From contig JBAZSF010000001.1 in assembly GCA_041662525.1 (NCBI GenBank), positions 105,383 through 169,382 on the forward strand: a stretch of DNA of 64,000 bases, given 5' to 3'. Position numbers and translations under genes: made by a program. Below the pieces are notes generated by a model. The model worked only from the letters and a program-made list of their open reading frames with translations, was not told the origin of the DNA and searched no databases. Shown here one piece after another: positions 2,491 to 56,132 of the stretch. Each line of letters opens with the position of its first letter. Position 1 is the stretch's first letter. This DNA is from Minisyncoccota bacterium. Its GTDB lineage: Bacteria > Patescibacteriota > Minisyncoccia > Phycocordibacterales > UBA9973.

Positions 2491-3870
2491 ATGCCATTAA
2501 AATTTTACAACACTCTAACACGAGAAAAAGAAATCTTTACTCCGATTGATCAAAAAGAAGTTCGTATGTATTCCTGTGGTCCAACAGTTTACAATTATAC
2601 CCATATAGGTAATTTGCGTTCTTTCTTTTTTGCTGATCTAATACGTCGTGCTCTTCGATATGAAGGATTTAAAGTAAAGCAAATAATGAATATTACAGAT
2701 ATAGGACATCTCTCTAGTGATGCGGATTCTGGTGAAGATAAAATGACCAAAGGGCTTTTGCGCGAGGGAAAAGAATTAACTCTCGAAAATATGCGTGAGC
2801 TTGCCGAATTTTATACTGAAAGTTTTCGAGCAGATTTAAAAGCATTAAATATCGAAATACCTTCGGGAATGTATTTTGCTAGTGATTATGTAAAAGAAGA
2901 TATCGAACTAATCCAAAAATTAAAAGAAAGAGAATATGCCTATAGCACTAATGATGGTGTATATTTTGATATTTCAAAAATGCCAGACTATGGAGCGCTT
3001 TGGGGTGGTAAAAGAGATTGGAACAAAGAAGGTGCGCGGGTAAATGAAAATTCAGAGAAAAGAAATCCGGAAGATTTTGCTCTTTGGAAATTTAGCAACT
3101 CCATCGGCTTCGAATCCCCTTTTGGCAAGGGTTTCCCAGGTTGGCACATTGAATGTTCAGCTATGGGATTAAAATTTTTAGGAGAACAATTTGATATTCA
3201 CACTGGAGGGATCGATTTAGTTCCGACTCATCACACCAACGAAATAGCTCAATCAGAATGCGCAACGGGTAAAAAACCTTTTGTTAAATTTTGGATGCAC
3301 AGTGAATTTGTTGATACTGGAAATGAAAAAATGTCTAAATCAGCAAATAATTTTTTAAGATTAGATAGCTTGCTTGAAAAAAGCATAAACCCAATAACAT
3401 ATAGATTCTGGCTTTTAATGGCTAGCTACCGCACAAAGGTTAACTTTAGTTGGGAAGCACTAGAAGCATCTGAAACAGCCCTAAAACGCTTATATGGGCT
3501 ATATTTAGAGTTGGGTGATGAGCATGGGCACATACACAAAGAATACCAGAATAAATTCAAAGAATACCTGGAGGATGATCTAGATACCCCACGGGCATTG
3601 TCTTTATTGTGGGATGTTATGAAAGATAAAAACATGTCCGATGGTGATAAAAAAGCTACTATTCTTGATTTTGATAAAGTCCTCGGGCTTGGTTTTGAAA
3701 ATTTAAAAGAAGAAAAAATTCCTGAAGAAATTAAAAAGCTTGTAGATCTGCGTGAAGAAGCCCGTAATAATAAAGATTTTAAAAAATCTGATGAATTACG
3801 AGATAAAATAAATTCTCTTGGTTATGAAGTGAAAGATACTTCTGAAGGTCAAAAAGTTTCCAAGACTTAA
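2491..3870 (+). CDS. cysS: Cysteinyl-tRNA synthetase
   Basis: 'YSCGPTVYNYTHIGNLRSF' (HIGH region) and 'KMSKS' motif; 459 aa. Confidence 0.95.
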   Translation: MPLKFYNTLTREKEIFTPIDQKEVRMYSCGPTVYNYTHIGNLRSFFFADLIRRALRYEGFKVKQIMNITDIGHLSSDADSGEDKMTKGLLREGKELTLENMRELAEFYTESFRADLKALNIEIPSGMYFASDYVKEDIELIQKLKEREYAYSTNDGVYFDISKMPDYGALWGGKRDWNKEGARVNENSEKRNPEDFALWKFSNSIGFESPFGKGFPGWHIECSAMGLKFLGEQFDIHTGGIDLVPTHHTNEIAQSECATGKKPFVKFWMHSEFVDTGNEKMSKSANNFLRLDSLLEKSINPITYRFWLLMASYRTKVNFSWEALEASETALKRLYGLYLELGDEHGHIHKEYQNKFKEYLEDDLDTPRALSLLWDVMKDKNMSDGDKKATILDFDKVLGLGFENLKEEKIPEEIKKLVDLREEARNNKDFKKSDELRDKINSLGYEVKDTSEGQKVSKT

Positions 3871-7137: not shown

Positions 7138-8889
7138 CTAGTAAACCTCTTGCTGATAACATTTTTCGCAATACACTATTTCAGGGCGATCGGGAGCATA
7201 GCTCGTCTCAAACTCTATCTCGCACTTACTTGCTCCATGAGAATGATTTGGTTTAGTACACATACAAGACCTATGCCAGAGTTTCATAGGATTACGCATT
7301 TTCAACCTATTTTCATGACGACACAAAAAACATAACCTAGGTAAAGGTACTCCAAGTTTTCGATATAAATTTAATTCATCTATAGTAATTTTATAAGCCC
7401 CTCTACAATAATTACTGAATTTTCCTTTATTTCCACATCCAATAATTTCTTTTGTAATAGAATTTTTAACATCATCTAAATTATCAGGAAAATTTTTTGA
7501 TTCAATTGTTGTTTTATATTCATTTCCTGATCTTTCACGCCATCGATATCCCATTTTAAGTGCCTGTTCCTTCTCTATGGGAAAATAATCTTGTGCCTGA
7601 GTTTCATTGTAGCAAAAAGTAGAAAGTTCACTGGGAAAAAATTCTCCATATTTGTATATAATTCCTCTCTTGTCCACATAGGGTACTTCATTCATTTGTT
7701 CTTTGATTTTTGGAATTAATTTTTCATATTCTTCTTTAAAGTATTGTTTGTTTAAAATACAATATTTTTTATTTCGCACACCAATACAACCAAATAAATT
7801 TGAAGACCCGTGGCAATTAAAAGAATACTCAATATCATTTGAACCATAGATCACACTGCCAAAAAGATTGCGAAAACCGCCTATTCCTGTATCAAATACC
7901 TCATAAAGCATTTCGCCTTCCCCTACTCCAGGCCCAGAATCATAAGCATCTTTAAGACTTTTTACTGACCAATGTGAATATTTTGAATCTTCAATTTGTC
8001 CATTTGCATCAAAACAAATTTTGCAATTTTTTGTACCTTCTAAGTTATCACCTGTTGAATTTACCACCTTTATTTGAACAGCAAAGCGATGCAATGAATT
8101 AAGATATAATTCTTTAAACTTATTTTTAAGTTCTAAAATAGTTTTATAATCTTTAAGATTATATTCAGCTAATTTTCTGTGATATTCTTCCCTAGAAAGC
8201 TGTTCATTCCACATGCAATATGATTTATTGCGCAAATTAGTACAACCAAAACAATCTGTGCATCCTACGCAATCATAAAGAAAATATGAATCTACGCAAC
8301 TTTTACAATTCAGAGAATAAAGTAAATGATAACTGTCCGAACAAATTACATCTTCATAACAAAGCTCAGAACGATTGACAACATATAAATCTGCAGAATC
8401 TTTTGTCCCGGTAATTCTATTAGAATACAAAGTTCTTTCTATTCTCCATGAACCAGAACACATATAGCAGTCCTTGCTAGCTTCTGCGATATTACAATAA
8501 TCGCTATTTGTTGCATTTACATTTGAAAGGGCTTGGAGGGGAATATTATTTCTTAAATTTTTCCACTGTTCAAAAAAAGGTTTAGAAAAATCATATTCTT
8601 TGCCATAAGAAAGCGGATCCCAGCCATCTCCCCACCAAGCATCAGCACAATACACAGTAAGTTTTTCTTCTGGAGGTAAAAAAGAAATAAGCATTTCGTC
8701 ATGACCTGGCGCATCACATTTTCTTTTGAACAAAGACATCTCGTTACGCCAAGTTATACGTCTGATAGTTCTGCATTCCGGACAAAAAGTCGGAGGTGGA
8801 ACTTTCATCTTTTTATAAAAGTTAAAATCCTCTAGTTCGATGACAAAGTCTTGTTTACAATTTTGGCAATTTTTAGTTTCAGAATTCAT
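7138..8889 (-). CDS. Cysteine-rich (~33 Cys) internally duplicated zinc-ribbon protein, paralog 1 of a 3-member family of unknown function
   Basis: 583 aa. N-terminal ribbon 'CQNCKQDF..FNFYKKMKVPPPTFCPECR' and homologous C-terminal module 'LNLYRKLGVPLPRLCFLCR'. Two central Cys clusters each ending 'CFGC..LRNK.YC..N.Q.S.EEY'. Start is 1 nt after the ATPase-2 stop. Confidence 0.6.
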   Translation of the reverse strand: MNSETKNCQNCKQDFVIELEDFNFYKKMKVPPPTFCPECRTIRRITWRNEMSLFKRKCDAPGHDEMLISFLPPEEKLTVYCADAWWGDGWDPLSYGKEYDFSKPFFEQWKNLRNNIPLQALSNVNATNSDYCNIAEASKDCYMCSGSWRIERTLYSNRITGTKDSADLYVVNRSELCYEDVICSDSYHLLYSLNCKSCVDSYFLYDCVGCTDCFGCTNLRNKSYCMWNEQLSREEYHRKLAEYNLKDYKTILELKNKFKELYLNSLHRFAVQIKVVNSTGDNLEGTKNCKICFDANGQIEDSKYSHWSVKSLKDAYDSGPGVGEGEMLYEVFDTGIGGFRNLFGSVIYGSNDIEYSFNCHGSSNLFGCIGVRNKKYCILNKQYFKEEYEKLIPKIKEQMNEVPYVDKRGIIYKYGEFFPSELSTFCYNETQAQDYFPIEKEQALKMGYRWRERSGNEYKTTIESKNFPDNLDDVKNSITKEIIGCGNKGKFSNYCRGAYKITIDELNLYRKLGVPLPRLCFLCRHENRLKMRNPMKLWHRSCMCTKPNHSHGASKCEIEFETSYAPDRPEIVYCEKCYQQEVY

Positions 8890-8890
8890 G

Positions 8891-10894
8891 CTATTCCAAA
8901 ATTTTTCTTAAAACATCTTCGGGAACTTCCTTTGTTGCTGGTTTTTGAGGTATAGGAGTTGCCGAAGGTGAAGCCGTAGGTCCTGAGTTTGTCGAAGGAG
9001 TGATTTTTTCCTCAATCAAATCTTTTAATTTATTCATATCTTCTGCTGTGGCTGCACGATCTACGCCTATTGGACGAGCAGGTTTTTTTACTTCTTGCAT
9101 TTTATTTTTTAAAGAATCGAGCGAAATAGGAGTTGGGGTTGAAATAGGTGCTGGGGTAGATTTAGCTTCTACCACTACTTTATTTAAAACATCCTTTAAT
9201 GCTGAGGTATCCCTATTTATTGGATAAGTTGACTTGGGCCTGACTGGATAAGTAGGTGTAGGTTTAATTGGGGCTGGTTTGGTAAATACTTTTTTAAAAG
9301 TCTTAATTATTCCAGCAGGTTTTACAGGGGCGGTAGTTTGTTGAAATTCGATACCTAAATCAGCTAGTGGTTTATAAAATTTAGATTCATCATATTTGAT
9401 TTGATCTTGTCCCCTTTTTTCCACCTTTACTTCTCCGGATTTTATTTTTGCAATACATTCTTTACAATAAGCTGCTCGGCCCGGCTCAGGTTTAAAGGGC
9501 ACTGTTTTTTCTAGTTTACAAAGCGAACAAATTACTGGAAATTTTTCTATATTTCCATTGGTAGTATATGTATCACTACCTAATGACATTCCGCTCCATT
9601 CATTAATTTCTCGCTCCACTACCTCCCTAGACCTACAATAAATGGCACGGGAAGATTGTATTACTGCTTCTTCTATTTTTTTATCCCCAGACTTTACCAT
9701 GGGTGGTAAAGTCTTAGCGGAGAATGGACGGGATGTCACACCATCAATCATTAACTTTAAATAAATTTTATAGTTCGGCAAATTAACAATATCTCCCGGA
9801 GTAAATTCTGGATCAAATTCTTTTTCCAAAAAGTCTGCATCGTCCGAACCAACTCTAAAAACTATCATTGTACCTACGTTACCAAAGACAGCATCACGCA
9901 CCGCAGAGCTTTTATCCACCACGAGCTGTGCAGTATACTGATGCGCCACAGTTAGATTTAGTCTGTACTTTCTAGCTTCAGACAAAATACCAGCAAAAGC
10001 ATCTGTCACAAAGTTTTGGAATTCGTCCACATAGAGATAAAAATCTTTTCGATGTTCTTCGGGAATACGCACGCGTTCCATGGCGGCAAGTTGAATCTTA
10101 GTAATGATCATCCCACCCAAAAGCCCAGAATTGTCTTCACCGATGCGTCCTTTGGAAACGTTCACTAGAAATATCTTCCCATCATTCATAATATCAAAAA
10201 TATTAATAGTACTTTTAGATTGACCGACTACGTTTCGAATAATAGAAGTAGAAAGAAATTGTCCGACTTTATTTTGAATCGGAGCGATAGCTTCATTGCG
10301 AAATTTGTCTTGCCAAGCTTCATATTCATGCACCCAAAAAGCTTTGATCACGGGATCTTTTAAATTAGCAATTATTTTTTGACGATAATCCTTGTCCACC
10401 AGCATTCTAGGGATTCCCAAAAGCGTCGTCCCGGGAGTATCTAGCAATGCTAAAATACAATTATTCAAAATGTATTCCATTCGAGCACTCCAAGCATTCG
10501 CCCAGATTTTAGTAAAAATACCCATGAGTCCAGACGCCACTAAATGTTTATATTGCGGATCAATTAATTCTAAAACATTAAAACCAATATGGTAGTCCAC
10601 ATCTGCGGGATTAAAATAAACTACGTCTTTCATGCGCTCCGGCGGAATAGCAGACAAAACTCCTTCGACGAGTTCCCCGTGCGGATCAACCACACAAACA
10701 CCTTCACCGTTCTGAATATTCTGAATGATCATATTAAACATCAATACAGATTTACCCGAACCAGATTTTCCAAGAATATAAACATGCTGACGTCTGTCCT
10801 TGCGCTTGATACCAAAGAGCTGATTTTTATCACGAAAAGTTGTGAGCCCAAGATAAGTAATTTCTCTATTTATAGGTATTTCTGGAAGTTCCAT
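8891..10894 (-). CDS. Soluble TrwB/VirD4-like P-loop ATPase, paralog 2, with C-terminal CxxC..CxxC zinc ribbon and Pro/Thr-rich tail
   Basis: 'ILGKSGSGKS', 'VVDPHGE', 'FYLYVDEFQNFV', 'TVAHQY'. C-terminal 'CSLCKLEKTVPFKPEPGRAAYCKECI' followed by a P/T/S-rich low-complexity region (~230 aa). Confidence 0.65.
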   Translation of the reverse strand: MELPEIPINREITYLGLTTFRDKNQLFGIKRKDRRQHVYILGKSGSGKSVLMFNMIIQNIQNGEGVCVVDPHGELVEGVLSAIPPERMKDVVYFNPADVDYHIGFNVLELIDPQYKHLVASGLMGIFTKIWANAWSARMEYILNNCILALLDTPGTTLLGIPRMLVDKDYRQKIIANLKDPVIKAFWVHEYEAWQDKFRNEAIAPIQNKVGQFLSTSIIRNVVGQSKSTINIFDIMNDGKIFLVNVSKGRIGEDNSGLLGGMIITKIQLAAMERVRIPEEHRKDFYLYVDEFQNFVTDAFAGILSEARKYRLNLTVAHQYTAQLVVDKSSAVRDAVFGNVGTMIVFRVGSDDADFLEKEFDPEFTPGDIVNLPNYKIYLKLMIDGVTSRPFSAKTLPPMVKSGDKKIEEAVIQSSRAIYCRSREVVEREINEWSGMSLGSDTYTTNGNIEKFPVICSLCKLEKTVPFKPEPGRAAYCKECIAKIKSGEVKVEKRGQDQIKYDESKFYKPLADLGIEFQQTTAPVKPAGIIKTFKKVFTKPAPIKPTPTYPVRPKSTYPINRDTSALKDVLNKVVVEAKSTPAPISTPTPISLDSLKNKMQEVKKPARPIGVDRAATAEDMNKLKDLIEEKITPSTNSGPTASPSATPIPQKPATKEVPEDVLRKILE

Positions 10895-10928
10895 ATAGTA
10901 TATATTTTACAACAAAATCACAAAAACA

Positions 10929-10950
10929 AAAAGCCCCTTATGGGGCTTTT
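10929..10950. terminator. Rho-independent terminator downstream of dnaK (minus-strand sense)
   Basis: Hairpin aaagcccc-ttat-ggggcttt; on the minus strand it is followed by a T-run. Confidence 0.6.
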
Positions 10951-11043
10951 CAAAAAATTTAGAAAATAATTTTTTTGAACGGTCTGGCTGGGGTGGGACC
11001 CAGAGAACCGAGGACCTGAGAAAAAATTGATTTTCTAAATTTT

Positions 11044-13047: not shown

Positions 13048-13563
13048 ATGTCAAGTAATAAAGATTATTCTAATAAAATACTTAAAATTTTAGGTAGAAA
13101 AAATGCTGTTTCTTTGCCAGAACTAAAAGAAAAAATTACTGGAGAAAAATATGCAATCACACGCTGTCTAAAAAATCTTAAAAATTCTGGATTGATAGAA
13201 CAAATACCCTCCCCACAAAATAATTATGCTCGCCTGACAAAACTTGGAAGAAAAAAAATGCATAGTTTAGAGTTGGATAGTGACACAACTCTTGTAAACA
13301 CTTCTTGGGATGGATTTTGGAGAATTATTCTACTTGATCTGCCTGAAAACAGAAAAAATGAACGGGAGTCTCTACGTTACCTTCTTAAAAAGGCTGGCTT
13401 CGTATGTCTAAAAAATTCCGCTTGGATATCCCCATTCCCCTTTGAACATTTATTTACGAATATTAAAAAAGACCTAGGACTTACCACTGAGATAATGATT
13501 ATCGTCACCGAAAATATAGATGAGGAAAGCAAAAAAGTTTTATTTGAAACTTTTGGAAAATAA
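13048..13563 (+). CDS. Short PaaX-like winged-helix transcriptional regulator
   Basis: N-terminal wHTH; C-terminal 'WDGFWRIILLDLPENRKNERESLRYLLKKAGFVCLKNSAWISP' matches the PaaX C-domain pattern 'WDG.W.lv.fd.pe..r..R..lr..L...Gf..l...vw..P'. Confidence 0.5.
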   Translation: MSSNKDYSNKILKILGRKNAVSLPELKEKITGEKYAITRCLKNLKNSGLIEQIPSPQNNYARLTKLGRKKMHSLELDSDTTLVNTSWDGFWRIILLDLPENRKNERESLRYLLKKAGFVCLKNSAWISPFPFEHLFTNIKKDLGLTTEIMIIVTENIDEESKKVLFETFGK

Positions 13564-13626: not shown

Positions 13627-15351
13627 CTAATAAATTTCTTGTTGATAACAACGTTCACAGTAAACTATTTCTGGTCGATCTGGCGCGTAACTAGTCTCAA
13701 ATTCTACTTCACATTTTTGTGTGCCATGTATGTGATTTTTTTTATCACACATACATTGCCTACGAAAAAAAAGAGGTAAATTTCGTAAGGTTAAACGTTC
13801 ATAATGCCGACAATTAATGCAAAAACGCGGTAATGGAAGATTCATTCTTTTTAAAAAATCAAGTTCTGATTTGATTATGCGAAAAGCCCCGGTGCATTCG
13901 TGTTCACAAGACTCATCGTGTGCACATTGAATAGCCTGATTAAGTATGTCATCACTTACATCATTGATATTATCTAAGATGTCTTTATTTTTTAAAGTAA
14001 ATTTATAATTTTGTTTTGTAGTTTCGTACCACGAAAACCCTTTCCTCTTTGCATCTTCTTTACCCAATGGAAAAAATTCGTAAGCAGTAGTTGCTTTGTA
14101 TGGAAAAAAAGAAAATTCACTTGGGAAAAATTCTCCATATTCTTTTGCTTGTTTCATATGTTCAATTATTTTGGGCACTAATTTTACATATTCTTCTTTT
14201 GTGTACTGTTTATTAAAAATACAATATTGCTTATTTCGAAGCGAAACACATCCAAAAAGATCTGATGAATTACTGCAAAAAACACAATAAGTTAAATTTT
14301 TTACATTTGTATAACAATAAGCACTAAATTTTATATTTGATCCCCCATTTCCAACAATAAGACTTTCGTAAATAAGTTCTACATTTTCTCCATAATTTGA
14401 ATAATCATAGCAATCCTTTACAGGTCCCATTAAAATATTTTGGACAAATTTGCTATCTTCCACCATCCTTACACGAAAACAATATTTTGCATTCTTAGAC
14501 CCATAAACATAATCACCAGAAACATTCACATTTTGACGATCGTGAATATATTTTTGCGGGTAATCAAGCCAATGTTTATATACCTCATCTTTTAATACTC
14601 TTAAGGCTTTATTAGAACCTAAATTTAATTCTTTAATATTTTTTAAATAATCTTCTCTAGAATATTGTTTATTAAAAATGCAATATGATTTATTGCGAAG
14701 ATTAATTGAACCAAAACAACTATTGCATCCAATACAATCTTTACACAAAATCATTTCCTGACAACTCTCACAATCAACAGAAAAAAATGTTTTATAACAA
14801 GCTGTAGTATTAATATTTCCATAACTCAATTCACATTGATTTGTCATATGGCTATCAAAGCATTGTTTAGAACCCTTATCCCAAATTAAATATGCAGAAT
14901 CTTCCGCATAAGAGACTCCTCCTCGAACCAAATAACAATTTTTTACATCATGCACATTAGTGCAATAGTAACAATTCACTAAATTATACATAGAATGCGC
15001 AGGTAGTGGCACCCTTAAAAGTAAACTTTTAAACTGTTCGAAAAATGTTTTTGTAAAATCAAAATCACGAGCATACTCAAGTGGATTCCAGGCATCAGAA
15101 ATCCAATAATCTCGATCATATATTTTATAAGGACTTTCTTCGGGAAAAAGTGAAAAAATTTCTTTTCCACCAAGAGCTTCCTTTTTCTTAAATAAATGCC
15201 AATCATTACGCCAGGCCATTCTTCGCTGCATCCTGCATTCCGGACAAAAAGTAGGCGGAGGTACTTTTATCTTTTCATAAAAATTAAAATCCTCCGGCTC
15301 TATGACAAATTCTTTCTTACAATTTTGGCAATTTTTTGTTTCAGATTTCAT
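13627..15351 (-). CDS. Cysteine-rich internally duplicated zinc-ribbon protein, paralog 2
   Basis: 574 aa. First ~45 and last ~30 residues are almost identical to paralog 1 ('MKSETKNCQNCKKEFVIEPEDFNFYEKIKVPPPTFCPECR' and 'KCEVEFETSYAPDRPEIVYCERCYQQEIY'); middle region divergent. Confidence 0.6.
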   Translation of the reverse strand: MKSETKNCQNCKKEFVIEPEDFNFYEKIKVPPPTFCPECRMQRRMAWRNDWHLFKKKEALGGKEIFSLFPEESPYKIYDRDYWISDAWNPLEYARDFDFTKTFFEQFKSLLLRVPLPAHSMYNLVNCYYCTNVHDVKNCYLVRGGVSYAEDSAYLIWDKGSKQCFDSHMTNQCELSYGNINTTACYKTFFSVDCESCQEMILCKDCIGCNSCFGSINLRNKSYCIFNKQYSREDYLKNIKELNLGSNKALRVLKDEVYKHWLDYPQKYIHDRQNVNVSGDYVYGSKNAKYCFRVRMVEDSKFVQNILMGPVKDCYDYSNYGENVELIYESLIVGNGGSNIKFSAYCYTNVKNLTYCVFCSNSSDLFGCVSLRNKQYCIFNKQYTKEEYVKLVPKIIEHMKQAKEYGEFFPSEFSFFPYKATTAYEFFPLGKEDAKRKGFSWYETTKQNYKFTLKNKDILDNINDVSDDILNQAIQCAHDESCEHECTGAFRIIKSELDFLKRMNLPLPRFCINCRHYERLTLRNLPLFFRRQCMCDKKNHIHGTQKCEVEFETSYAPDRPEIVYCERCYQQEIY

Positions 15352-15361
15352 AATCTTACCT

Positions 15362-15406
15362 TTTCCCCTTCTTCCCCTTCACCAGGTGAAGGGGAAGAAG
15401 GGGAAA
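15362..15406. repeat. 45-bp perfect palindrome (22-bp arms, 1-nt centre), GC-rich, between Cys-rich paralogs 3 and 2
   Basis: tttccccttcttccccttcacc a ggtgaaggggaagaaggggaaa, read directly; the two arms are exact reverse complements. Confidence 0.9.
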
Positions 15407-15408
15407 CT

Positions 15409-17097
15409 TTAATTTATATTTTGCTTGTAACATTCTTCACAGGCGATTTTTTGATATCCCCATTCTGGTAAATAATACGCTTCAATATCTTTTTTACAAT
15501 AAAAACATTTATATGAATACGCTTGCAAAACAGTTAAATATTTTAAACTATTTTTTATTCTCACATCAAAATGATAACGCGGGAGCGGTATATTATTTTC
15601 TTTATAAAAAGAAAGTTCATTTTGGGCAATATTAAAACGCCAACCTGTTTCTGGGCATAAAAGTGCCTGAGTGATAATAGTATCCGAAACATCTTTCACA
15701 TCATCAGGAAGTTCGTTTGTAGGCATCCCATCTGTCTGACCTTCTGTTGTATCTTCCCAATAACCACCAATCTTTAGCATATCTTCTTTTTTTGTGTTTG
15801 GAAAATAAAAAAACCCAGTAGAGAAATTAAATGGTCCAAGACTCATGGAATAAGGCAAAAATTTTCCATACTCACCTCTTTTTTTCATATCAGAAATAAT
15901 CTCATCCCGTAATTTTTCATATTCCTCTTTAGAATACTGCTTATTTAAAATACAATATTTCTTTTTCCTCAAACCCACACAACCAAAACAATATTCACAC
16001 TCAATACATAAATCTAAATATTCGGAATATCTAGAAGAAGACCAGCTAGAATATTTGAGAGCATAACCGCTGGGTTGGCAAGAACTACAATTCCCTGATA
16101 TTTCTAAATCCTGACAGCCGGTAATATCAATACAAGATTCCAATCCTCTACCCCTAATACAATTAGAACAATCTTCGGATTCTGAAATCGTAAAACAATT
16201 ATGACAATTTTTACAATCCAATAAATAATCTCCAAAAGAATTATGAACTTTTAAATTAAAATTAGGTCTATGCACTACTTCTTCTTGAACTATTTCTTCA
16301 AAATGTTTTTTATGCTTTTGGATAGAATCATAGGAACCAAGTTGAAATGATTTGATTTTTTTATCATATTCTTCTTTGGAGTATTGAACATTTTCTATGC
16401 AAAAAGATTTATTGCGAAGATTCCAGCACATAAAACAATCCTGACAATTCCGACAGTCATATAAAAAGTAAGAATTTATGCAATCTCGAGAATGTTTAGA
16501 GTAAAAAAGTTTATAAGAATGATGGCACTCAGAAGAGTCAAAACATTTTTCACTATTGTAACAAACTATCACATCAATAGAATTTTTTACATTGATGTTT
16601 CTATATGAATAAAATAAGTTTTCACAATCCACCATAGAACGTGAAAGATAACTATCTTTACAACTCCAAACATCATCGCACCAATCACATCCTGTGCTTT
16701 TACTACCATCTTGATGCGGACGAGGCACTTTTTCTTGGAGATTTTTTAATTGCTCAAAAAATGTTTTTTTCTCATCGTAATCTTCTCCATAATTCATTGC
16801 ATCCCATTTATCGCTGTACCATTCAGAAAGAGTGTAGATTGGATATCTGCTATTCTCCGGCAAAACTGTAATCAAACTTTCTCCAGAAAGATCAGATTTA
16901 CCTTTGCGAAATTTTCCAAATACCCAAAAAGACAAGTGCAATTTTACCCGACAGAAAAAACAAAGTGTCGGCAACTCTATATCAACTTTTTTATATAAAG
17001 ATAATTCTCCTTCTGTAATTAAAAAATTATTTCCACAATGCTCACAAATATTAGTTTGTTGGTTCTTTGTATTCATATACATTGACCCTCGCGGCAC
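15409..17097 (-). CDS. Cysteine-rich internally duplicated zinc-ribbon protein, paralog 3 (most divergent; start codon ambiguous, overlaps grpE 3' end)
   Basis: 562 aa. N-terminal 'CEHCGNNFLITEGELSLYKKVDIELPTLCFFCR', central 'CRNCQDCFMCWNLRNKSFC', 'CFGCVGLRKKKYCILNKQYSKEEY', C-terminal 'CFYCKK...CEECYKQ'. Alternative starts: MYMNT at 17082 or MNT at 17076. Confidence 0.55.
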   Translation of the reverse strand: MPRGSMYMNTKNQQTNICEHCGNNFLITEGELSLYKKVDIELPTLCFFCRVKLHLSFWVFGKFRKGKSDLSGESLITVLPENSRYPIYTLSEWYSDKWDAMNYGEDYDEKKTFFEQLKNLQEKVPRPHQDGSKSTGCDWCDDVWSCKDSYLSRSMVDCENLFYSYRNINVKNSIDVIVCYNSEKCFDSSECHHSYKLFYSKHSRDCINSYFLYDCRNCQDCFMCWNLRNKSFCIENVQYSKEEYDKKIKSFQLGSYDSIQKHKKHFEEIVQEEVVHRPNFNLKVHNSFGDYLLDCKNCHNCFTISESEDCSNCIRGRGLESCIDITGCQDLEISGNCSSCQPSGYALKYSSWSSSRYSEYLDLCIECEYCFGCVGLRKKKYCILNKQYSKEEYEKLRDEIISDMKKRGEYGKFLPYSMSLGPFNFSTGFFYFPNTKKEDMLKIGGYWEDTTEGQTDGMPTNELPDDVKDVSDTIITQALLCPETGWRFNIAQNELSFYKENNIPLPRYHFDVRIKNSLKYLTVLQAYSYKCFYCKKDIEAYYLPEWGYQKIACEECYKQNIN

Positions 17098-17671
17098 GGA
17101 TTACGCGTTCGCCTAGTTTATAGCCTTTTTGAATCACATTTGCGATAGTATGATCTTGTTCTTTTTTATTTGTTTCTACCATATCAATAGACTGATGAAT
17201 ATTGGGATCAAAACTCTCCCCCGTCTCCCCTATTGTTTTTACTCCGTATTCTTCAAAAATGGTATTCATCTGAGCGTAAATATATTCCACGCCTTTTCGC
17301 CAGTTTTCATCCACCTTTTCCCAAGCTTCCTTGTTCGCAAAAGCCATATTAAAACTATCAATCACAGAAAGAAAACGAGTTAAAATTCTCTCTCGCATCG
17401 CTTCTGAAAAAAGTGCTTTTCTATCTTCTTCCTGCTTACGATAATTAACAAAATCTGCTCGCTCTTTCTGCCAGCCAGTTAAATATTCTTCTTTTTCGGC
17501 TTTGCACACTTTTAGATCAGCTCTAAATTTCTTTAAAGTTTTCTTTAAATCTTCTTCTCCGTCTTCGTTAAATTCAAACTCTAAAACCTCAGACGAGTCA
17601 ACAGACTCGTCCCGAGCAGCCTCGAGGGAATCTTTTATTTCGGTATCAATTTTCTTTTCTTCATCTGACAT
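17051..17671 (-). CDS. grpE: Nucleotide exchange factor GrpE
   Basis: 206 aa, acidic N-terminus, coiled-coil 'FRADLKVCKAEKEEYLTGWQKERADFVNYRKQ', C-terminal beta domain 'ANVIQKGYKLGERVIRAARV'. Confidence 0.85.
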   Translation of the reverse strand: MSDEEKKIDTEIKDSLEAARDESVDSSEVLEFEFNEDGEEDLKKTLKKFRADLKVCKAEKEEYLTGWQKERADFVNYRKQEEDRKALFSEAMRERILTRFLSVIDSFNMAFANKEAWEKVDENWRKGVEYIYAQMNTIFEEYGVKTIGETGESFDPNIHQSIDMVETNKKEQDHTIANVIQKGYKLGERVIRAARVNVYEYKEPTN

Positions 17672-17687
17672 ATATTTATCTTAGCAT

Positions 17688-17717
17688 AAAAATACCCCTA
17701 TTTTCAAGGGGTATTTT
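17688..17717. terminator. Rho-independent terminator downstream of rpsI (minus sense)
   Basis: Hairpin aaatacccc-N9-ggggtattt followed by a T-rich run on the minus strand. Confidence 0.55.
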
Positions 17718-17721
17718 AGAA

Positions 17722-18168
17722 CTAACGCTTTGACCACTGAGGTGCCTTACGAGCTTTCTTGAGACCGAATTTTCTTCGTTCTTTAGCTCTCGGATCACGC
17801 TTTAGAAAACCTAATTTTTTCAAACTATCACGCAAAGTAATGTCTGATTCTATAAGAGCGCGGGCAAGCCCGTGGCGAACTGCTTCTGATTGAGAATGGA
17901 TTCCACCACCCGAAACATGCGCTTCTACTCCCCATTTTACATCTGACTTAGTTCCGCTAGTTGAAACTCCTTTTATCATTGGATCCAAAATTAAACGACG
18001 CTGATCTTCTGTTTTAAAATATTCTTTGGCATCTTTACCATTCACTATAAAATGAGCTTTGGTTACTTCTGTGATTCGCACTCTAGCAGTGGAAGTCTTT
18101 CTTCTTCCTACGGCTTCAATATATTTTCCTTTTTTTTCTGTGTCTTTATCCATATTTTTAGTCTTCAA
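17722..18168 (-). CDS. rpsI: 30S ribosomal protein S9
   Basis: C-terminal '...RKFGLKKARKAPQWSKR' signature of S9. Confidence 0.9.
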   Translation of the reverse strand: MKTKNMDKDTEKKGKYIEAVGRRKTSTARVRITEVTKAHFIVNGKDAKEYFKTEDQRRLILDPMIKGVSTSGTKSDVKWGVEAHVSGGGIHSQSEAVRHGLARALIESDITLRDSLKKLGFLKRDPRAKERRKFGLKKARKAPQWSKR

Positions 18169-26698: not shown

Positions 26699-27889
26699 TC
26701 ATACAACGACTCCACCACCTAAGCAAATATCACCATCATAAATAACACAAGATTGGCCAGAAGCAACCAAAATCGGTTTTTTAAAAAACACTGTTGCCCT
26801 TCGACTACGTTCAGGGCCTTCGGCGACTTTGATTGTACAAGGTAGAAATTCTCCATGATAACGAATTTGCGCTGTGTAAGTTTTATTTGATTCTGGAATC
26901 TTGTTAATCCAATTTATATTTTCTAGATTTATTTTAGAATCAAATTCAACCCCCCTTAATCCCCCCTTATCAGGGGGAAGCTGGGACACATATAAAATAT
27001 TTTTCTTTATATTTTTACCAAATACATAATAAGCCCCATCCGTTGGCATTTTTTTTGTAATGGTAAAACCATGCCTTTCTCCTAGAGTATAAAAAACTAC
27101 TCCATCATGATAGCCGATTTCTTCCCCTTTTTCGTTTAACACTTTACCTTTTTTTTCTTTTATGTAATGTTTCAAAAATTCTTTTAAATCAACTGCTCCT
27201 AAAAAACAAATACCTTGGCTATCTTTTTTTTCTGAAACTGGAAGATTGAATTTTTTAGCAAATTTTCTAACTTCAGTTTTTTTAAAACCTCCAATAGGAA
27301 ATAAAATTTTCTTTAACTGTTCTTGTTTTAGTGTCCATAAAAAATAACTTTGGTCTTTTGTAGGATCATTACCTTTCATTAAAAAACTCAAAGCAGTGCT
27401 TTCTGCGACATTCGCAACCAAAGCTCGGTCAGTCATGTTCAAGATAGAGTGCGAGTCGCAAGAAAGTACCTGATTTGAGTTTTTTGCATAATGTCCTGTA
27501 GCCACAAAAATCTCCGCCGAAGGACGGACAAGCGCACCCAGCAAAAGAGCTTTTTTAAGAAAGGCTCCAAATTTCACCTCTTTATTGCACATCACATCTG
27601 GATTTGGTGTCCTTCCGAGCTTGTATTCTCGAATCATATAATCAGCCACTTCTTTTTTGTACACGTCCTCAAGATCAAAAGTAAGAAATGGGATGTCTAA
27701 AGATGCCGCTACACGCATCGCATCCATCCGTTCTTCTTCTTCATTACAAACTAGAAAATCCGGATGCCAAGTTTTAATAAAAACCCCCACGACTTCATAT
27801 CCTTGTTTTTTAAGCAAAGTAGCCGAAACAGCGCTATCTACACCACCAGACAAACCTACAAAAACTATTTTTTTCTTAATGTTAGTCAT
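26699..27889 (-). CDS. mnmA: tRNA-specific 2-thiouridylase MnmA (with in-frame GC-rich palindromic mini-insertion)
   Basis: PP-loop 'IVFVGLSGGVDSAVSA', 396 aa; insertion encodes 'PPDKGGLRG'. Confidence 0.88.
   Translation of the reverse strand: MTNIKKKIVFVGLSGGVDSAVSATLLKKQGYEVVGVFIKTWHPDFLVCNEEEERMDAMRVAASLDIPFLTFDLEDVYKKEVADYMIREYKLGRTPNPDVMCNKEVKFGAFLKKALLLGALVRPSAEIFVATGHYAKNSNQVLSCDSHSILNMTDRALVANVAESTALSFLMKGNDPTKDQSYFLWTLKQEQLKKILFPIGGFKKTEVRKFAKKFNLPVSEKKDSQGICFLGAVDLKEFLKHYIKEKKGKVLNEKGEEIGYHDGVVFYTLGERHGFTITKKMPTDGAYYVFGKNIKKNILYVSQLPPDKGGLRGVEFDSKINLENINWINKIPESNKTYTAQIRYHGEFLPCTIKVAEGPERSRRATVFFKKPILVASGQSCVIYDGDICLGGGVVV
26944..26980. repeat. C-run/G-run hairpin mini-element (attcaaccccccttaatccccccttatcagggggaag), copy 1, in-frame inside mnmA
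   Basis: Second copy at 45342-45379 (attcaacccccttcttttcccccttatcaggggggaat); ~60% GC in a ~33% GC genome. Confidence 0.8.
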
Positions 27890-40503: not shown

Positions 40504-41745
40504 CTAATCATACCATTTTTTTAATTTAGTCAAAATTTTTGATAAAACTTTTACAGTATAGTCTATATCCTTTTTAGTTGTATCTCTACCTAAAGAAAAA
40601 CGTACTCCGCCCAACTCGTCATTTACCAAGGGTTCCCCTTGGTATTGCACTTGACGAATTGCTTTAATGACATCTGAGCCTCCGCTTTCTCCGCTTTTGC
40701 AAGCGCTTTTAGCTGAAGCCATAATTCCCTTATCAGAAAGCTCAATAACCAAAAGATCACTCGGGATATTGGCAAATGTTACGTTTACATTATTCGGCAA
40801 TCTATTTACTAAATCGCCATTTACTATACAGTTATTCGGACGTTGGACGTCCGAAATTCGGACGTCCAACGTCCGAAAAAAATAATCTCGCAACTTAATC
40901 AAACGTTTTACTTCTTTTTCTTTTATTTTTTGTACTGATTTCAATGCTCGAGAAAACTTTAAAATCTCCGGCAAATTTTCTGTCCCTGGACGAATTCCCC
41001 CTTCTTGATCTCCCCCACCAAACACCTTCGCAAGATTAACTGTTTTCTTTTTATAAAGAATTCCGACCCTGCCGGCTCCTTCTATTTTTGAACCAGAAAG
41101 TGAAAGCAAATCTACCCCTAATTTTTCAACATTCAGACCTAAATAATTTACCGCTTGCACTGCATCAGTATGGAAAATAGGAAAAAGAGTTAAGTTTATT
41201 TTTTTATAATATCTAATTATCTTTGCAATTTCCTTTATGGGTTGAATTGTGCCGATTTCATTATTCACATACATTACTGAAACAAGCACAGTATTTTTTT
41301 TAATTTCCTTTTTTATTTTTTGGGGATCTACTATTCCATTTGCTTCCACTGGTACGATAGTTATTTCTGCTAGTTTTCTTTTTGCTAATAATTTATAAGT
41401 CTCAAGAACGGATGGATGTTCTATGTTCGTCGTTATGATATGTGGTAAAACTTTTCCTTGCCAATTTAAAACCACCCCTTGAATTGCGAGATTATTACTC
41501 TCCGTTCCGCCACTGGTAAAAATAATTTCTTCTGGCCTAGCACCTAAAATATCAGAAACTTCTCTCCGCGCAATTTGAAGTTTAATTTTTGCCTCTACTC
41601 CAGCAGAATGCACAGAACTAGGGTTTGCTCTCGCGCTAGCGGCATAATCAAAATAGATATATTTATTTGGTTTTTTATTTGAGCTGTTATTTGATTTGGG
41701 CATAAAAATAGTATATATTGAAAATACATGAACACAAAGCTTCAA
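40504..41745 (-). CDS. Cysteine desulfurase (NifS/IscS-like, class V aminotransferase) carrying an in-frame 43-bp palindromic insertion
   Basis: 'IYFDYAASARANPSSVHSAG', PLP-Lys region 'SLSGSKIEGAG', active-site Cys 'SAKSACKSGESG'; 413 aa. Confidence 0.85.
   Translation of the reverse strand: MKLCVHVFSIYTIFMPKSNNSSNKKPNKYIYFDYAASARANPSSVHSAGVEAKIKLQIARREVSDILGARPEEIIFTSGGTESNNLAIQGVVLNWQGKVLPHIITTNIEHPSVLETYKLLAKRKLAEITIVPVEANGIVDPQKIKKEIKKNTVLVSVMYVNNEIGTIQPIKEIAKIIRYYKKINLTLFPIFHTDAVQAVNYLGLNVEKLGVDLLSLSGSKIEGAGRVGILYKKKTVNLAKVFGGGDQEGGIRPGTENLPEILKFSRALKSVQKIKEKEVKRLIKLRDYFFRTLDVRISDVQRPNNCIVNGDLVNRLPNNVNVTFANIPSDLLVIELSDKGIMASAKSACKSGESGGSDVIKAIRQVQYQGEPLVNDELGGVRFSLGRDTTKKDIDYTVKVLSKILTKLKKWYD
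40835..40877. repeat. 43-bp near-perfect GC-rich palindrome ttcggacgttggacgtccgaa-a-ttcggacgtccaacgtccgaa (four alternating CGGACGT/ACGTCCG units) inside the cysteine desulfurase ORF
   Basis: Read directly; encodes 'FFRTLDVRISDVQRP', about 7 aa longer than the remembered IscS 'LWNGIKDIEEVYLNGD' segment. Confidence 0.85.
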
Positions 41746-44655: not shown

Positions 44656-45342
44656 GTGCTATACTACACATGTATGAATAAAACAAACTACAAATCAATA
44701 TTTTTTGGCTTATCAATGTTAGCTTTTAGTTTATGGGTCACACCCGTAAAAGTTCTTGCTACAGCTGGTTATGTTGATAATCCAACCCCTTATATTACAT
44801 ACATCACCCCAAATTCTAGTAATGGTAATATTGGATCAAACTTAGTCATTGCGATTACAGGAAATGGATTTATTCCAAGCTCAATCGTTAGAGTCAATGG
44901 TTCTGATCGCAAAACAACTTTTATAGATTACTCCCATATTCTAGTTAGAATAAATCCAAATGATACCTACAACACTGATGGATTCTACATTAATATTTTC
45001 AATGGATTTCCTGGAGGAGGATATTCTAATTCAGCATTATTTACCATAAATAATAACAACAATGACTCCTCTACTATAACCAGAACTAATACGAACACAG
45101 GAAACAATACCTATAACTCAAACAGCACTTATTCAAATACAAATCAAACAGATACTACTAATACAAATTCAGACTCTAGCAACCTCGCTTCCGCAGCTAT
45201 TTTCGGATCAAATAACTTCCTCCCTTCCGGCTTGATCCAGTGGATATTGTTTGCCATAGTAATTCTACTTATCGTCATCCTTGCAAGAAAAGTTTTCGGG
45301 GCTACAGCAAAATACAACGAAGCACCGATGAAGACTCCGTAA
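44656..45342 (+). CDS. Cell-surface protein: signal peptide, Ig-like (IPT/TIG-like) domain, Asn/Thr/Ser-rich low-complexity stalk, C-terminal TM anchor
   Basis: 'ITYITPNSSNGNIGSNLVIAITGNGFIPSSIVRVNGS', then 'NNNNNDSSTITRTNTNTGNNTYNSNSTYSNTNQTDTTNTNSDSS', then C-terminal 'IQWILFAIVILLIVILARKVF'. Confidence 0.45.
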   Translation: MLYYTCMNKTNYKSIFFGLSMLAFSLWVTPVKVLATAGYVDNPTPYITYITPNSSNGNIGSNLVIAITGNGFIPSSIVRVNGSDRKTTFIDYSHILVRINPNDTYNTDGFYINIFNGFPGGGYSNSALFTINNNNNDSSTITRTNTNTGNNTYNSNSTYSNTNQTDTTNTNSDSSNLASAAIFGSNNFLPSGLIQWILFAIVILLIVILARKVFGATAKYNEAPMKTP

Positions 45343-45379
45343 TTCAACCCCCTTCTTTTCCCCCTTATCAGGGGGGAAT
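45342..45379. repeat. C-run/G-run hairpin mini-element, copy 2 (intergenic, starts at stop codon of the surface-protein gene)
   Basis: attcaacccccttcttttcccccttatcaggggggaat; see copy 1 at 26944-26980. Confidence 0.8.
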
Positions 45380-45570
45380 TAACAAAAAACGGAAGCCTTG
45401 CTTTCGTTTTTTGTGCTTGACTTTTTCATATTAGGTGTGGTATAATAAGTGTTGAAAAATTCGTTGAAAAAAGAATAGGAAATAAAGACGAAGGGTTTCT
45501 CTTCGTTAAAGAATATAGAGGATTTTTCCTCTAAAAATTTTGAAAGCGCTTCAGCGCAAGGAGAAGAAAA

Positions 45571-56078: not shown

Positions 56079-56100
56079 ATAAACTAAACAAAAAAAATCC

Positions 56101-56132
56101 CGCATAATGCGGGATTTTTTTTGTTTATGTAG
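56101..56132. terminator. Bidirectional rho-independent terminator (aaaaaaatcccgcat-aa-tgcgggatttttttt)
   Basis: Perfect 10-bp GC-containing stem flanked by A-run and T-run. Confidence 0.7.

Follow-up and report, generated by a model that had tools for sequence, protein, structure and literature searches.

What is a perfect 45-bp palindrome doing in the narrow gap between two adjacent genes, and how did it come to be there? The question is raised by positions 15362–15406 of a 64,000-nucleotide stretch of a Minisyncoccota genome (contig JBAZSF010000001.1, positions 105,383 to 169,382), hereafter called the window, where the palindrome separates two tandem genes encoding Cys-rich paralogs. The answer that we favor, with moderate confidence, is that the palindrome represents the young insertion, in this species only, of a short GC-rich palindromic element, of the same kind as repetitive extragenic palindromic (REP) sequences, MITEs (miniature inverted-repeat transposable elements) and Rickettsia palindromic elements (RPEs), in the variable spacer of the tandem Cys-rich paralogs. 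We favor it because GC-rich palindromic elements of related genomes come and go at orthologous sites, and sit in-frame within uvrA, uvrC and mnmA. The palindrome thereby drew attention to GC-rich hairpin elements in Paceibacteria that resemble RPEs and MITEs and seem to form a population not described before.

Geometry and predicted fold of the palindrome

The original prediction had reported perfect 22-bp arms, a GC-rich composition and a position in a 57-nt gap between Cys-rich paralog genes, and all of these features were confirmed. The palindrome reads TTTCCCCTTCTTCCCCTTCACC-A-GGTGAAGGGGAAGAAGGGGAAA and is perfect over its 45 bp: the 22-nt arms at 15362–15383 (TTTCCCCTTCTTCCCCTTCACC) and 15385–15406 (GGTGAAGGGGAAGAAGGGGAAA) are 100% complementary, with a lone central A at 15384. 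Its GC content is 24/45 (53%), as compared to 31–35% in the flanking 2-kb bins and about 34% in the genome. The palindrome fills most of the 57-nt gap (15352–15408), which extends from the stop codon of the open reading frame (ORF) at 15409–17097 to the ATG of the ORF at 13627–15351, both on the minus strand. The two flanking Cys-rich ORFs are paralogs, sharing 32% identity (E = 3e-82), and the true start of the upstream gene is probably the ATG at 17079, which gives a protein of 556 aa, matching those of the relatives. The features of the junction are listed below, where SD stands for Shine-Dalgarno, and p1 and p3 are the names used here for the orthologous paralogs of the relatives.

15362–15406, no strand assigned: the 45-bp palindrome, with the central A/T at 15384, defined by its geometry and fold and identical in contig L081
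15385–15406, minus strand: pyrimidine-rich arm, the 5' one in the mRNA sense, UUUCCCCUUCUUCCCCUUCACC, beginning 2 nt past the UAA of the upstream gene
15362–15383, minus strand: purine-rich arm, the 3' one in the mRNA sense, GGUGAAGGGGAAGAAGGGGAAA
15352–15361, minus strand: unpaired 10-nt leader AGGUAAGAUU, from the stem to the AUG, with the SD-like AAGGU at 15358–15362
15409–17097, minus strand: upstream Cys-rich paralog, ortholog of p1 (81–89%), with its stop codon at 15409–15411
13627–15351, minus strand: downstream Cys-rich paralog, ortholog of p3 (81–83%), with its ATG at 15349–15351

RNA folding, which had been proposed as a check, yielded −41.4 kcal/mol for the minus-strand RNA from 15340 to 15430, as compared to a shuffle mean of −19.2 (z = −6.7), and none of 200 shuffles was as stable. 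As a minus-strand RNA, the palindrome provides 22 Watson-Crick pairs, and the minimum-energy fold consists of 21 pairs and a tri-loop. The predicted 22-bp stem reaches the length of an RNase III substrate, which is at least 20 bp of uninterrupted double-stranded RNA, or about two helical turns. By our own estimate, a perfect 22-bp hairpin is expected by chance about 3e-7 times in 64 kb of this composition. No further match to an arm with up to 3 mismatches was found in the rest of the 64-kb window, and dinucleotide shuffles also gave none. In the palindrome region, no Rfam family reached its gathering threshold, and the permissive E-value mode returned only generic hairpin matches to eukaryotic miRNA precursors (for example, 40.5 bits where 96 are needed).

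A probable lineage-specific insertion among related palindromic elements

The same 45 bases are found in a second, separate contig, which stands for another haplotype or assembly. Contig L081 (Ga0172379_10053446; 3.5 kb) is 99.94% identical to positions 14284–17790 of the window, with 2 SNPs, and the palindrome in it is unchanged. When public metagenome contigs were scanned with a 19-mer of the arm, at least 120 stretches matched. Among the matches listed, L081 contained the only true second copy, at the same locus, and the 119 others were coding coincidences (such as ...VKGKKG...), mostly in higher-GC contigs (0.28–0.77 GC), with no partner arm. The idea that the arms were copied from relatives was dropped, as no match to them was found in 822 kb of related loci when as many as 5 mismatches were allowed. 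The viral collection contained nothing matching the 3' half of the hairpin family described below or the gapped palindrome pattern, and BLAST searches of plasmids and phages returned nothing.

We mapped 79 related loci from species-representative genomes (L-numbers in the text are labels of loci or contigs). Among 5.8 billion proteins, the best match of the downstream protein is an identical protein from a 'Candidatus Paceibacterota' metagenome-assembled genome, followed by proteins of 83%, 82% and 81% identity. The local gene order in the window, on the minus strand, is grpE (17051–17671), the Cys-rich gene at 15409–17097, the palindrome and the Cys-rich gene at 13627–15351, followed by a divergent gene for a PaaX/MarR-like protein and by dnaK. 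The locus of L001/L002 and L003 reads grpE - p1 - p2 - p3 - paaX - dnaK; the window thus holds the orthologs of p1 and p3 without p2. More distant genomes carry one (L157), three (L126) or four (L136) paralogs at this locus. In L001/L002, L003, L126 and L136, p1 and p3 are separated by one or two additional paralogs.

L203 represents a sister lineage: it is 89% identical to the window in grpE and p1, as compared to 78–84% for the other relatives, and its p1 abuts p3 as in the window. The p1|p3 spacer of L203, however, is 49 nt long, reads TAA-T-ATGAAATTAGAATTTACAGACGTCCAACGTCTGGAGAGTTATCCACAT-ATG, and is unrelated to the palindrome, bearing its own small GACGTCCAACGTC hairpin. The palindrome is absent from the same junction in L203 and in all of the other relatives sampled. 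Since L203 has the p1|p3 junction with another spacer, the junction is older than the palindrome, and the latter is restricted to the species of the window. The relatedness between the window and L203 also changes here. For grpE and p1 the identity is 89%, whereas for p3 it falls to 82%, so that L203 stands no nearer to the window in this gene than other relatives do; the shift lies exactly at the junction spacer (15352–15408 in the window, 10000–10048 in L203). This drop suggests a recombination breakpoint at the p1|p3 spacer, as judged from sequence identities.

Two other histories of the junction were considered and rejected. We dropped the idea that the palindrome is a scar left when the middle paralog was deleted, because L203 also lacks that paralog and yet has a different spacer. 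The upstream gene is not a p1/p2 chimera produced by unequal recombination, as its C-terminus is p1-like to the last residues.

The related genomes contain comparable elements. A search for the layout of the palindrome, with C-run, C-run, G-run and G-run, found a conserved bipartite hairpin, ACCTCTCCCC-AA-CCCCTCTCC-loop-GGAGAGGGG-AAAGCAA-GGGGTGAGGTG, which defines what we call the CCCCTCTCC family in this analysis. This hairpin is about 90% identical across genomes whose adjoining proteins share only 45–55%. Its intergenic sites are the gap between the VirD4-like and Cys-rich genes (L003 and L151), the gap between p1 and the next paralog (L126) and the region upstream of rnc (L180), and it also occurs in-frame within uvrA of L129 (1436–1491). 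The VirD4-like|Cys-rich junction is filled in L003 (TAG-AAA-[~70 nt]-ATG) and empty in its close relatives, namely in L001 (TAG-AAA-ATG), in the window (TAG-C-ATG) and in L127. Presence and absence at orthologous sites, as expected of MITEs, are thus seen both for this related family (L003 as compared to L001, the window and L127) and for the palindrome, given the unrelated p1|p3 spacer of L203. Other hairpin cores, namely CCTGCCTGC..GCAGGCAGG, GACGTCCAACGTC and GAAGCCTTGCTTC, also recur at unrelated sites across genomes.

A further element lies in the same genome as the palindrome. Contig L205 is 99.97% identical to the right end of the window and carries, about 3.8 kb past that end and about 52 kb from the palindrome, a MITE-like element of ~155 nt (about 700–855 in L205). 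It is located between two co-oriented genes and consists of 21-nt terminal inverted repeats, ACCTCACCCCTGCCCCTCTCC and GGAGAGGGGTCAGGGGTGATGT, which are the arms of the CCCCTCTCC family, around an AT-rich core of ~100 nt, with a fold of −70 kcal/mol. The palindrome has terminal inverted repeats as well, in its two perfect 22-nt arms, although this is trivially so for any palindrome.

Palindromic insertions are also found inside conserved genes. The uvrA gene of L132 contains a 48-nt in-frame GC-rich palindromic insert (AAGGTCGGACCTT...AAGGTCCGACCTT; about 1085–1135), which is absent from the 75%-identical L129 ortholog, and uvrC of L132 contains a 54-nt palindrome (3407–3461) that is translated as YPYPASPYVGGGAKGGGG. 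For mnmA (26699–27889 in the window), we aligned 15 Paceibacteria MnmA proteins; the lengths range from 349 to 431 aa in the wider match list. The alignment revealed three insertion hot spots within an otherwise 73%-identical protein. At 27512–27532, a 7-residue insert with 67% GC is present in the window alone. At 27383–27481, a 33-residue insert has a fold of −40 kcal/mol, and its peptide HGSHSILNMADRALVA is found at two different sites in the ortholog P0123.

We then asked whether the palindrome itself is a member of the CCCCTCTCC family. A covariance model, R1, was trained on the L003, L126 and L151 copies only, leaving the window out, and was used to search 884 kb on both strands. Its only match in the window is the palindrome, with 24 bits (E = 0.003), as compared to 85–89 bits for the training copies and 39.5 for L180, while unrelated long hairpins were not matched. 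The layout also agrees: the palindrome reads CCCC-TTCTT-CCCCTTCACC-T-GGTGAAGGGG-AAGAA-GGGG-AAAAGGTAAGATT-ATG and the family reads CCCC-AA-CCCCTCTCC-loop-GGAGAGGGG-AAAGCAA-GGGG-TGAGGTGAATTT-ATG, including the AGGT box before the ATG. The 3' arm and leader are identical to the 3' half of the family at 26/36 positions, a test that is inflated by a composition gradient. Homology based on the arms only failed the composition-matched test described below. Membership in the family is therefore no more than suggestive. The reading as a lineage-specific GC-rich palindromic insertion is independent of this membership.

Several observations weigh against an inserted element of this kind. A second exact palindrome at another locus was found neither in the 64-kb window nor among the metagenome matches listed. 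The sense-strand flanks, ...TTAAAG and AGGTAAG..., share only a 2-nt AG repeat, so that no target-site duplication is visible, and the copies of family elements in relatives show no consistent target-site duplication at their flanks either. In composition-preserving shuffles, the arm-only similarity of the 3' arm gave p of about 0.1 against L126 and L151 and was worse against L180, L205 and L129, and the similarity of the 5' half to the CCCCTCTCC family is not significant. Moreover, R1 aligned the palindrome in a different register from the manual alignment. Finally, a palindrome generated locally, by a template switch and without mobile ancestry, would look identical.

The perfect pairing itself argues for a recent origin by DNA copying, through insertion or through template switching (hairpin-templated), and not for long selection at the RNA level. 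Among the four functions listed in the original prediction, the selfish palindromic element is the best supported, in view of the restriction of the palindrome to one lineage, the different hairpin in L203, and the turnover of such elements in the relatives. The RNase III site and the attenuator are still candidate roles, for which the analysis speaks neither way; the 22-bp stem is long enough for RNase III. A plain terminator at this place in related genomes, with neither conservation of the palindrome nor any copy elsewhere, had been named as the refuting outcome. The palindrome is indeed not conserved in the relatives, and no exact copy exists elsewhere among the matches listed, but related elements do exist. 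This combination weakens the readings as a conserved regulatory site and does not weaken that as a selfish element.

Possible effects on the two genes and competing explanations

Whatever its origin, could the palindrome affect its neighbors? On the mRNA strand, the stem opens 2 nt after the UAA and closes 10 nt before the AUG. After the stem, the sense (minus) strand continues with AAAAGGUAAGAUUAUG and has no U-tract, unlike a Rho-independent terminator; the original observation that no clean T-tract follows thus holds for the sense strand, whereas the plus strand has a U-rich tail. The two genes share a strand and are separated by 57 nt, and no terminator stands between them on the sense strand; the element is therefore probably co-transcribed. 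It would then be part of a bicistronic RNA, in which it would form a 22-bp stem worth about −40 kcal/mol. An intercistronic barrier would be the likeliest outcome: the stem could block 3'-to-5' exonucleases, serve as a full-length RNase III substrate, or both. The barrier would uncouple the mRNA levels or the translation of the paralogs, by analogy with the REP hairpins of E. coli operons and the Correia elements of Neisseria, which uncouple the levels of cistrons. We infer an effect on mRNA processing, stability or translation. No RNase III gene (rnc) was found in the 64-kb window, which is uninformative for a span of this size.

An AAAGGT box, described in the original prediction as SD-like, is present downstream of the stem, but the argument built on it is weak. 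SD cores (GGAG, GAGG, AGGA, AGGT and GGTG) occur within 20 nt upstream of only 8 of the 61 ORF starts in the window, and most leaders are A/T-rich; because SD cores are this rare, SD-based reasoning carries little weight at the downstream gene. Furthermore, the SD-like AAGGU and 10 unpaired nucleotides lie just outside the stem, which makes outright sequestration unlikely, though the stem abuts the 30S footprint. With the box outside the stem and SD sites rarely used, SD sequestration or translational coupling was set aside and is carried along only as a possible effect.

The first alternative, which we consider possible but doubtful, is that the palindrome is an intercistronic RNA structure that evolved for its purpose, without mobile ancestry, and was selected to set the expression ratio of the paralogs. 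It could act as an RNase III processing site, as a 3'-end stabilizer of the upstream cistron, or as a device that couples or uncouples translation. The 22-bp stem has the minimal length of an RNase III substrate, and its placement, with 2 nt separating it from the stop codon and 10 nt from the AUG, would suit such a role. The spacers between tandem Cys-rich paralogs also argue for it: they are typically made up of a single stem-loop plus a short leader rich in A, and exceed other same-strand spacers in degree of structure (median z of −2.7 versus −1.2; 38 versus 149 junctions; Mann-Whitney p = 0.006). The hairpin sequences differ from junction to junction, and the spacers upstream of p3 in the relatives likewise bear hairpins of different sequence. 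However, L203, the sister lineage, has an unrelated spacer at this junction, and old RNA stems usually tolerate G-U pairs and mismatches, while 22 bp of perfect Watson-Crick pairing suggests recent DNA copying. With a single sequence, covariation is not measurable.

It is unlikely, in our assessment, that the palindrome is a recombination site bordering a paralog 'cassette', with the inter-paralog hairpins serving as break-and-join points at which paralogs are gained, lost or swapped. Loose analogies are offered by the attC sites of integrons and by the G-rich recombination initiator that serves pilin variation in Neisseria. This idea draws on the arrays following grpE, which hold 1 to 4 paralogs depending on the genome, on the unusual degree of structure in the array spacers, on the occurrence of the same hairpin element ahead of different paralogs in different genomes, and on the relatedness between the window and L203, which jumps exactly at p1|p3 (89% in grpE/p1 versus 82% in p3). 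On the other hand, no integrase or recombinase was identified beside the arrays, the junction hairpins share no common sequence core, and family elements are also found away from Cys-rich genes, upstream of rnc and in uvrA and uvrC; the relatedness discontinuity is based on four genomes. If true, cassette exchange would mean that ultra-small bacteria vary their gene arrays in a programmed manner of a new kind, involving an abundant Patescibacteria-specific family that is often found beside a VirD4-like ATPase, and it would explain the array sizes of 1–4, the excess structure in the inter-paralog spacers and the jump in relatedness at p1|p3.

A transcription terminator, either of the upstream Cys-rich gene without a U-tract on the sense strand or of antisense (plus-strand) transcription, is improbable. 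A GC-rich stem-loop right after a stop codon is what a terminator would look like, and on the plus strand, where the stem is followed by the U-rich tail CUUUAAUUUAUAUUUUG, a consensus scan scored it as terminator-like, with 20 pairs and then ACTTTAATTT. The sense tail AAAAGGUAAGAUU, however, contains no U-tract, and no plus-strand gene ends nearby, the closest being 13048–13563, 1.8 kb away. The ordinary terminators of this genome also differ: those with clean U-tracts in the window, at 10927–10952 (after dnaK), 45382–45414 and 56085–56127, have stems of 7–15 bp, or 11–21 pairs when extended by A/T pairs, with short GC cores, and the 22-bp stem is far longer than such short stems.

The original prediction had also named a protein-binding operator, for which no support was found, and which we regard as very improbable. 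The dyad symmetry is perfect, as would suit a dimeric regulator, and the nearest plus-strand gene (13048–13563, 1.8 kb from the palindrome) encodes a PaaX_M/MarR-type regulator that is conserved in synteny. Yet this regulator is kept in all of the relatives and the palindrome is not, the 22-bp GC-rich arms are much longer than typical half-sites, and the palindrome is enclosed by coding regions of the same orientation, with no recognizable promoter at the site. An assembly or sequencing artefact can be dismissed: chimeric reads or graph errors can yield perfect palindromes, but contig L081, differing by 2 SNPs over 3.5 kb, carries the same 45 bases, and the flanks are two distinct intact genes and not mutual inverted copies.

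Comparison with known elements and further observations

How does the palindrome, if young and inserted as proposed, compare with characterized systems? The resemblance to REP sequences and bacterial interspersed mosaic elements (BIMEs), including the intercistronic malE-malF REPs that stabilize the upstream mRNA, lies in the short (35–45 nt) GC-rich palindrome without a U-tract, located directly after a stop codon between genes that are co-transcribed (here probably), from which the upstream mRNA would be expected to gain protection and the genes of the operon to be expressed differentially. REPs, however, have hundreds of conserved copies, are associated with a RAYT transposase (IS200/IS605-like) and are imperfect, whereas the present palindrome is perfect, with no second exact copy in the window or, at another locus, among the metagenome matches listed. 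With RPEs it shares the setting of a reduced AT-rich genome, in which palindromic repeats are both intergenic and in-frame within conserved genes (here uvrA, uvrC and mnmA), and their presence or absence varies between orthologs. RPEs differ in being 100–150 bp long, in forming defined families and in belonging to an alphaproteobacterium, while the elements described here are 20–155 nt long, GC-rich and from Patescibacteria, and the palindrome is intergenic.

Correia/NEMIS elements and other bacterial MITEs have terminal inverted repeats that yield a long hairpin if co-transcribed, and the L205 element has a MITE-like layout. In Neisseria, Correia/NEMIS hairpins are cut by RNase III, which alters the expression of neighboring genes. 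In contrast to the palindrome, which is two arms and one base with no visible target duplication, Correia elements are 100–155 bp long, duplicate a TA target and are present in hundreds of copies. A Rho-independent terminator is similar as a GC-rich stem-loop after a stop codon and differs in that the palindrome has a 22-bp stem and no U-tract on the sense strand. Integron attC sites, finally, are structured, sequence-diverse palindromes between co-oriented genes in variable arrays. Here, however, no integrase was identified beside the arrays, conserved R/L boxes and extrahelical bases are absent, the 'cassettes' all belong to one family, and the elements also occur outside the arrays.

A literature search with limited full-text coverage found no paper in which 'palindromic element' appears together with Patescibacteria, Parcubacteria or the candidate phyla radiation (CPR), and nothing on terminators in these bacteria. 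Taken alone, the palindrome is small and probably a young insertion, and its effect on the two genes would be local at most. More broadly, the streamlined genomes of Paceibacteria (about 35% GC, <1 Mb) appear to bear several families of short GC-rich palindromic elements, which turn over fast between close relatives, occupy operon spacers against start and stop codons, and are tolerated in-frame in essential genes, among them uvrA, uvrC and mnmA. In-frame behavior of palindromic elements is known from Rickettsia. If this picture is true, gene callers and protein-family alignments for Paceibacteria would be affected, the elements would be markers of strain-level evolution, and they would offer a natural test of the effect of strong hairpins on expression in bacteria mostly without SD sites.

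Two mini-elements in the window had been likened to the palindrome in the original prediction, under positions 26944 and 45342.

45343–45378, plus strand: mini-element CCCCCTTCTTTTCCCCCTTATCAGGGGGG, beginning 5 nt past the stop of the ORF at 44656–45342 and followed by the classical terminator at 45382–45414
26942–26980, minus strand: mini-element in mnmA, in-frame, encoding LPPDKGGLRGVEF, common to only 2 of 14 aligned orthologs; a possible relative

The two are indeed copies of one another, and that at 26944 is an in-frame insertion in mnmA, but R1 misses both, and their likeness to the palindrome is architectural: the mini-element at 45343–45378 shares the C-run/C-run/G-run layout, and is a possible relative by layout. 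The core of the adjacent terminator (45382–45414), GAAGCCTTGCTTTC, recurs in hairpins of L001 (4956–4985) and L180 (8240–8289), the latter being a palindrome with 25-bp arms.

The window contains a second long palindrome, at 40832–40880, with 24-nt arms that are 96% complementary and a fold of about −38.6 kcal/mol. It lies within a cysteine desulfurase gene (ORF 40504–41745, minus strand; IscS/NifS-like), which reads it as ...FFRTLDVRISDVQRPNN... and has about 6 extra residues as compared to solved homologs. Its core, GACGTCCAACGTC, is also found in the p1|p3 spacer of L203 (10015–10035), after the p3 stop codon of L203 (11777–11813) and in L125 (10611–10633).

In L180, the CCCCTCTCC bipartite hairpin is located at 2448–2510, 32 nt upstream of rnc. 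The rnc gene of E. coli is autoregulated via a hairpin in its own leader, and by analogy the placement in L180 may matter functionally.

A conserved hairpin of AT-rich sequence (CTACTTTA-CTTAAC-TAAAGTAG) directly precedes p3-type paralogs in L001 (5000–5037), L204 (500–532), L136 (3140–3172 and 4960–4991) and L134 (1561–1613). The leader AAAGGTAAGATT in the window may be a remnant of the 3' arm of this hairpin (TAAAGTAGATT).

The Cys-rich proteins themselves (13627–17097 and 7138–8889 in the window; loci L001–L003 and L124–L203) are about 555–590 aa long, with treble-clef-like CxxC...CxxC modules at both ends. They have only weak Pfam matches and form a very large Patescibacteria family, with about 8000 matches at E ≤ 1e-10. 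Their genes form tandem arrays of 1–6 paralogs, the content of which varies between close relatives. A gene for a VirD4/TraG-type coupling ATPase (8891–10894 in the window), with TrwB_AAD_bind, DUF87, T4SS-DNA_transf and TraG-D_C domains and a treble-clef zinc finger, is directly followed by a Cys-rich paralog (7138–8889), and the same arrangement is found in L001, L003, L127, L137 and L151. This adjacency hints at a functional link between the Cys-rich family and a type IV secretion-like system.

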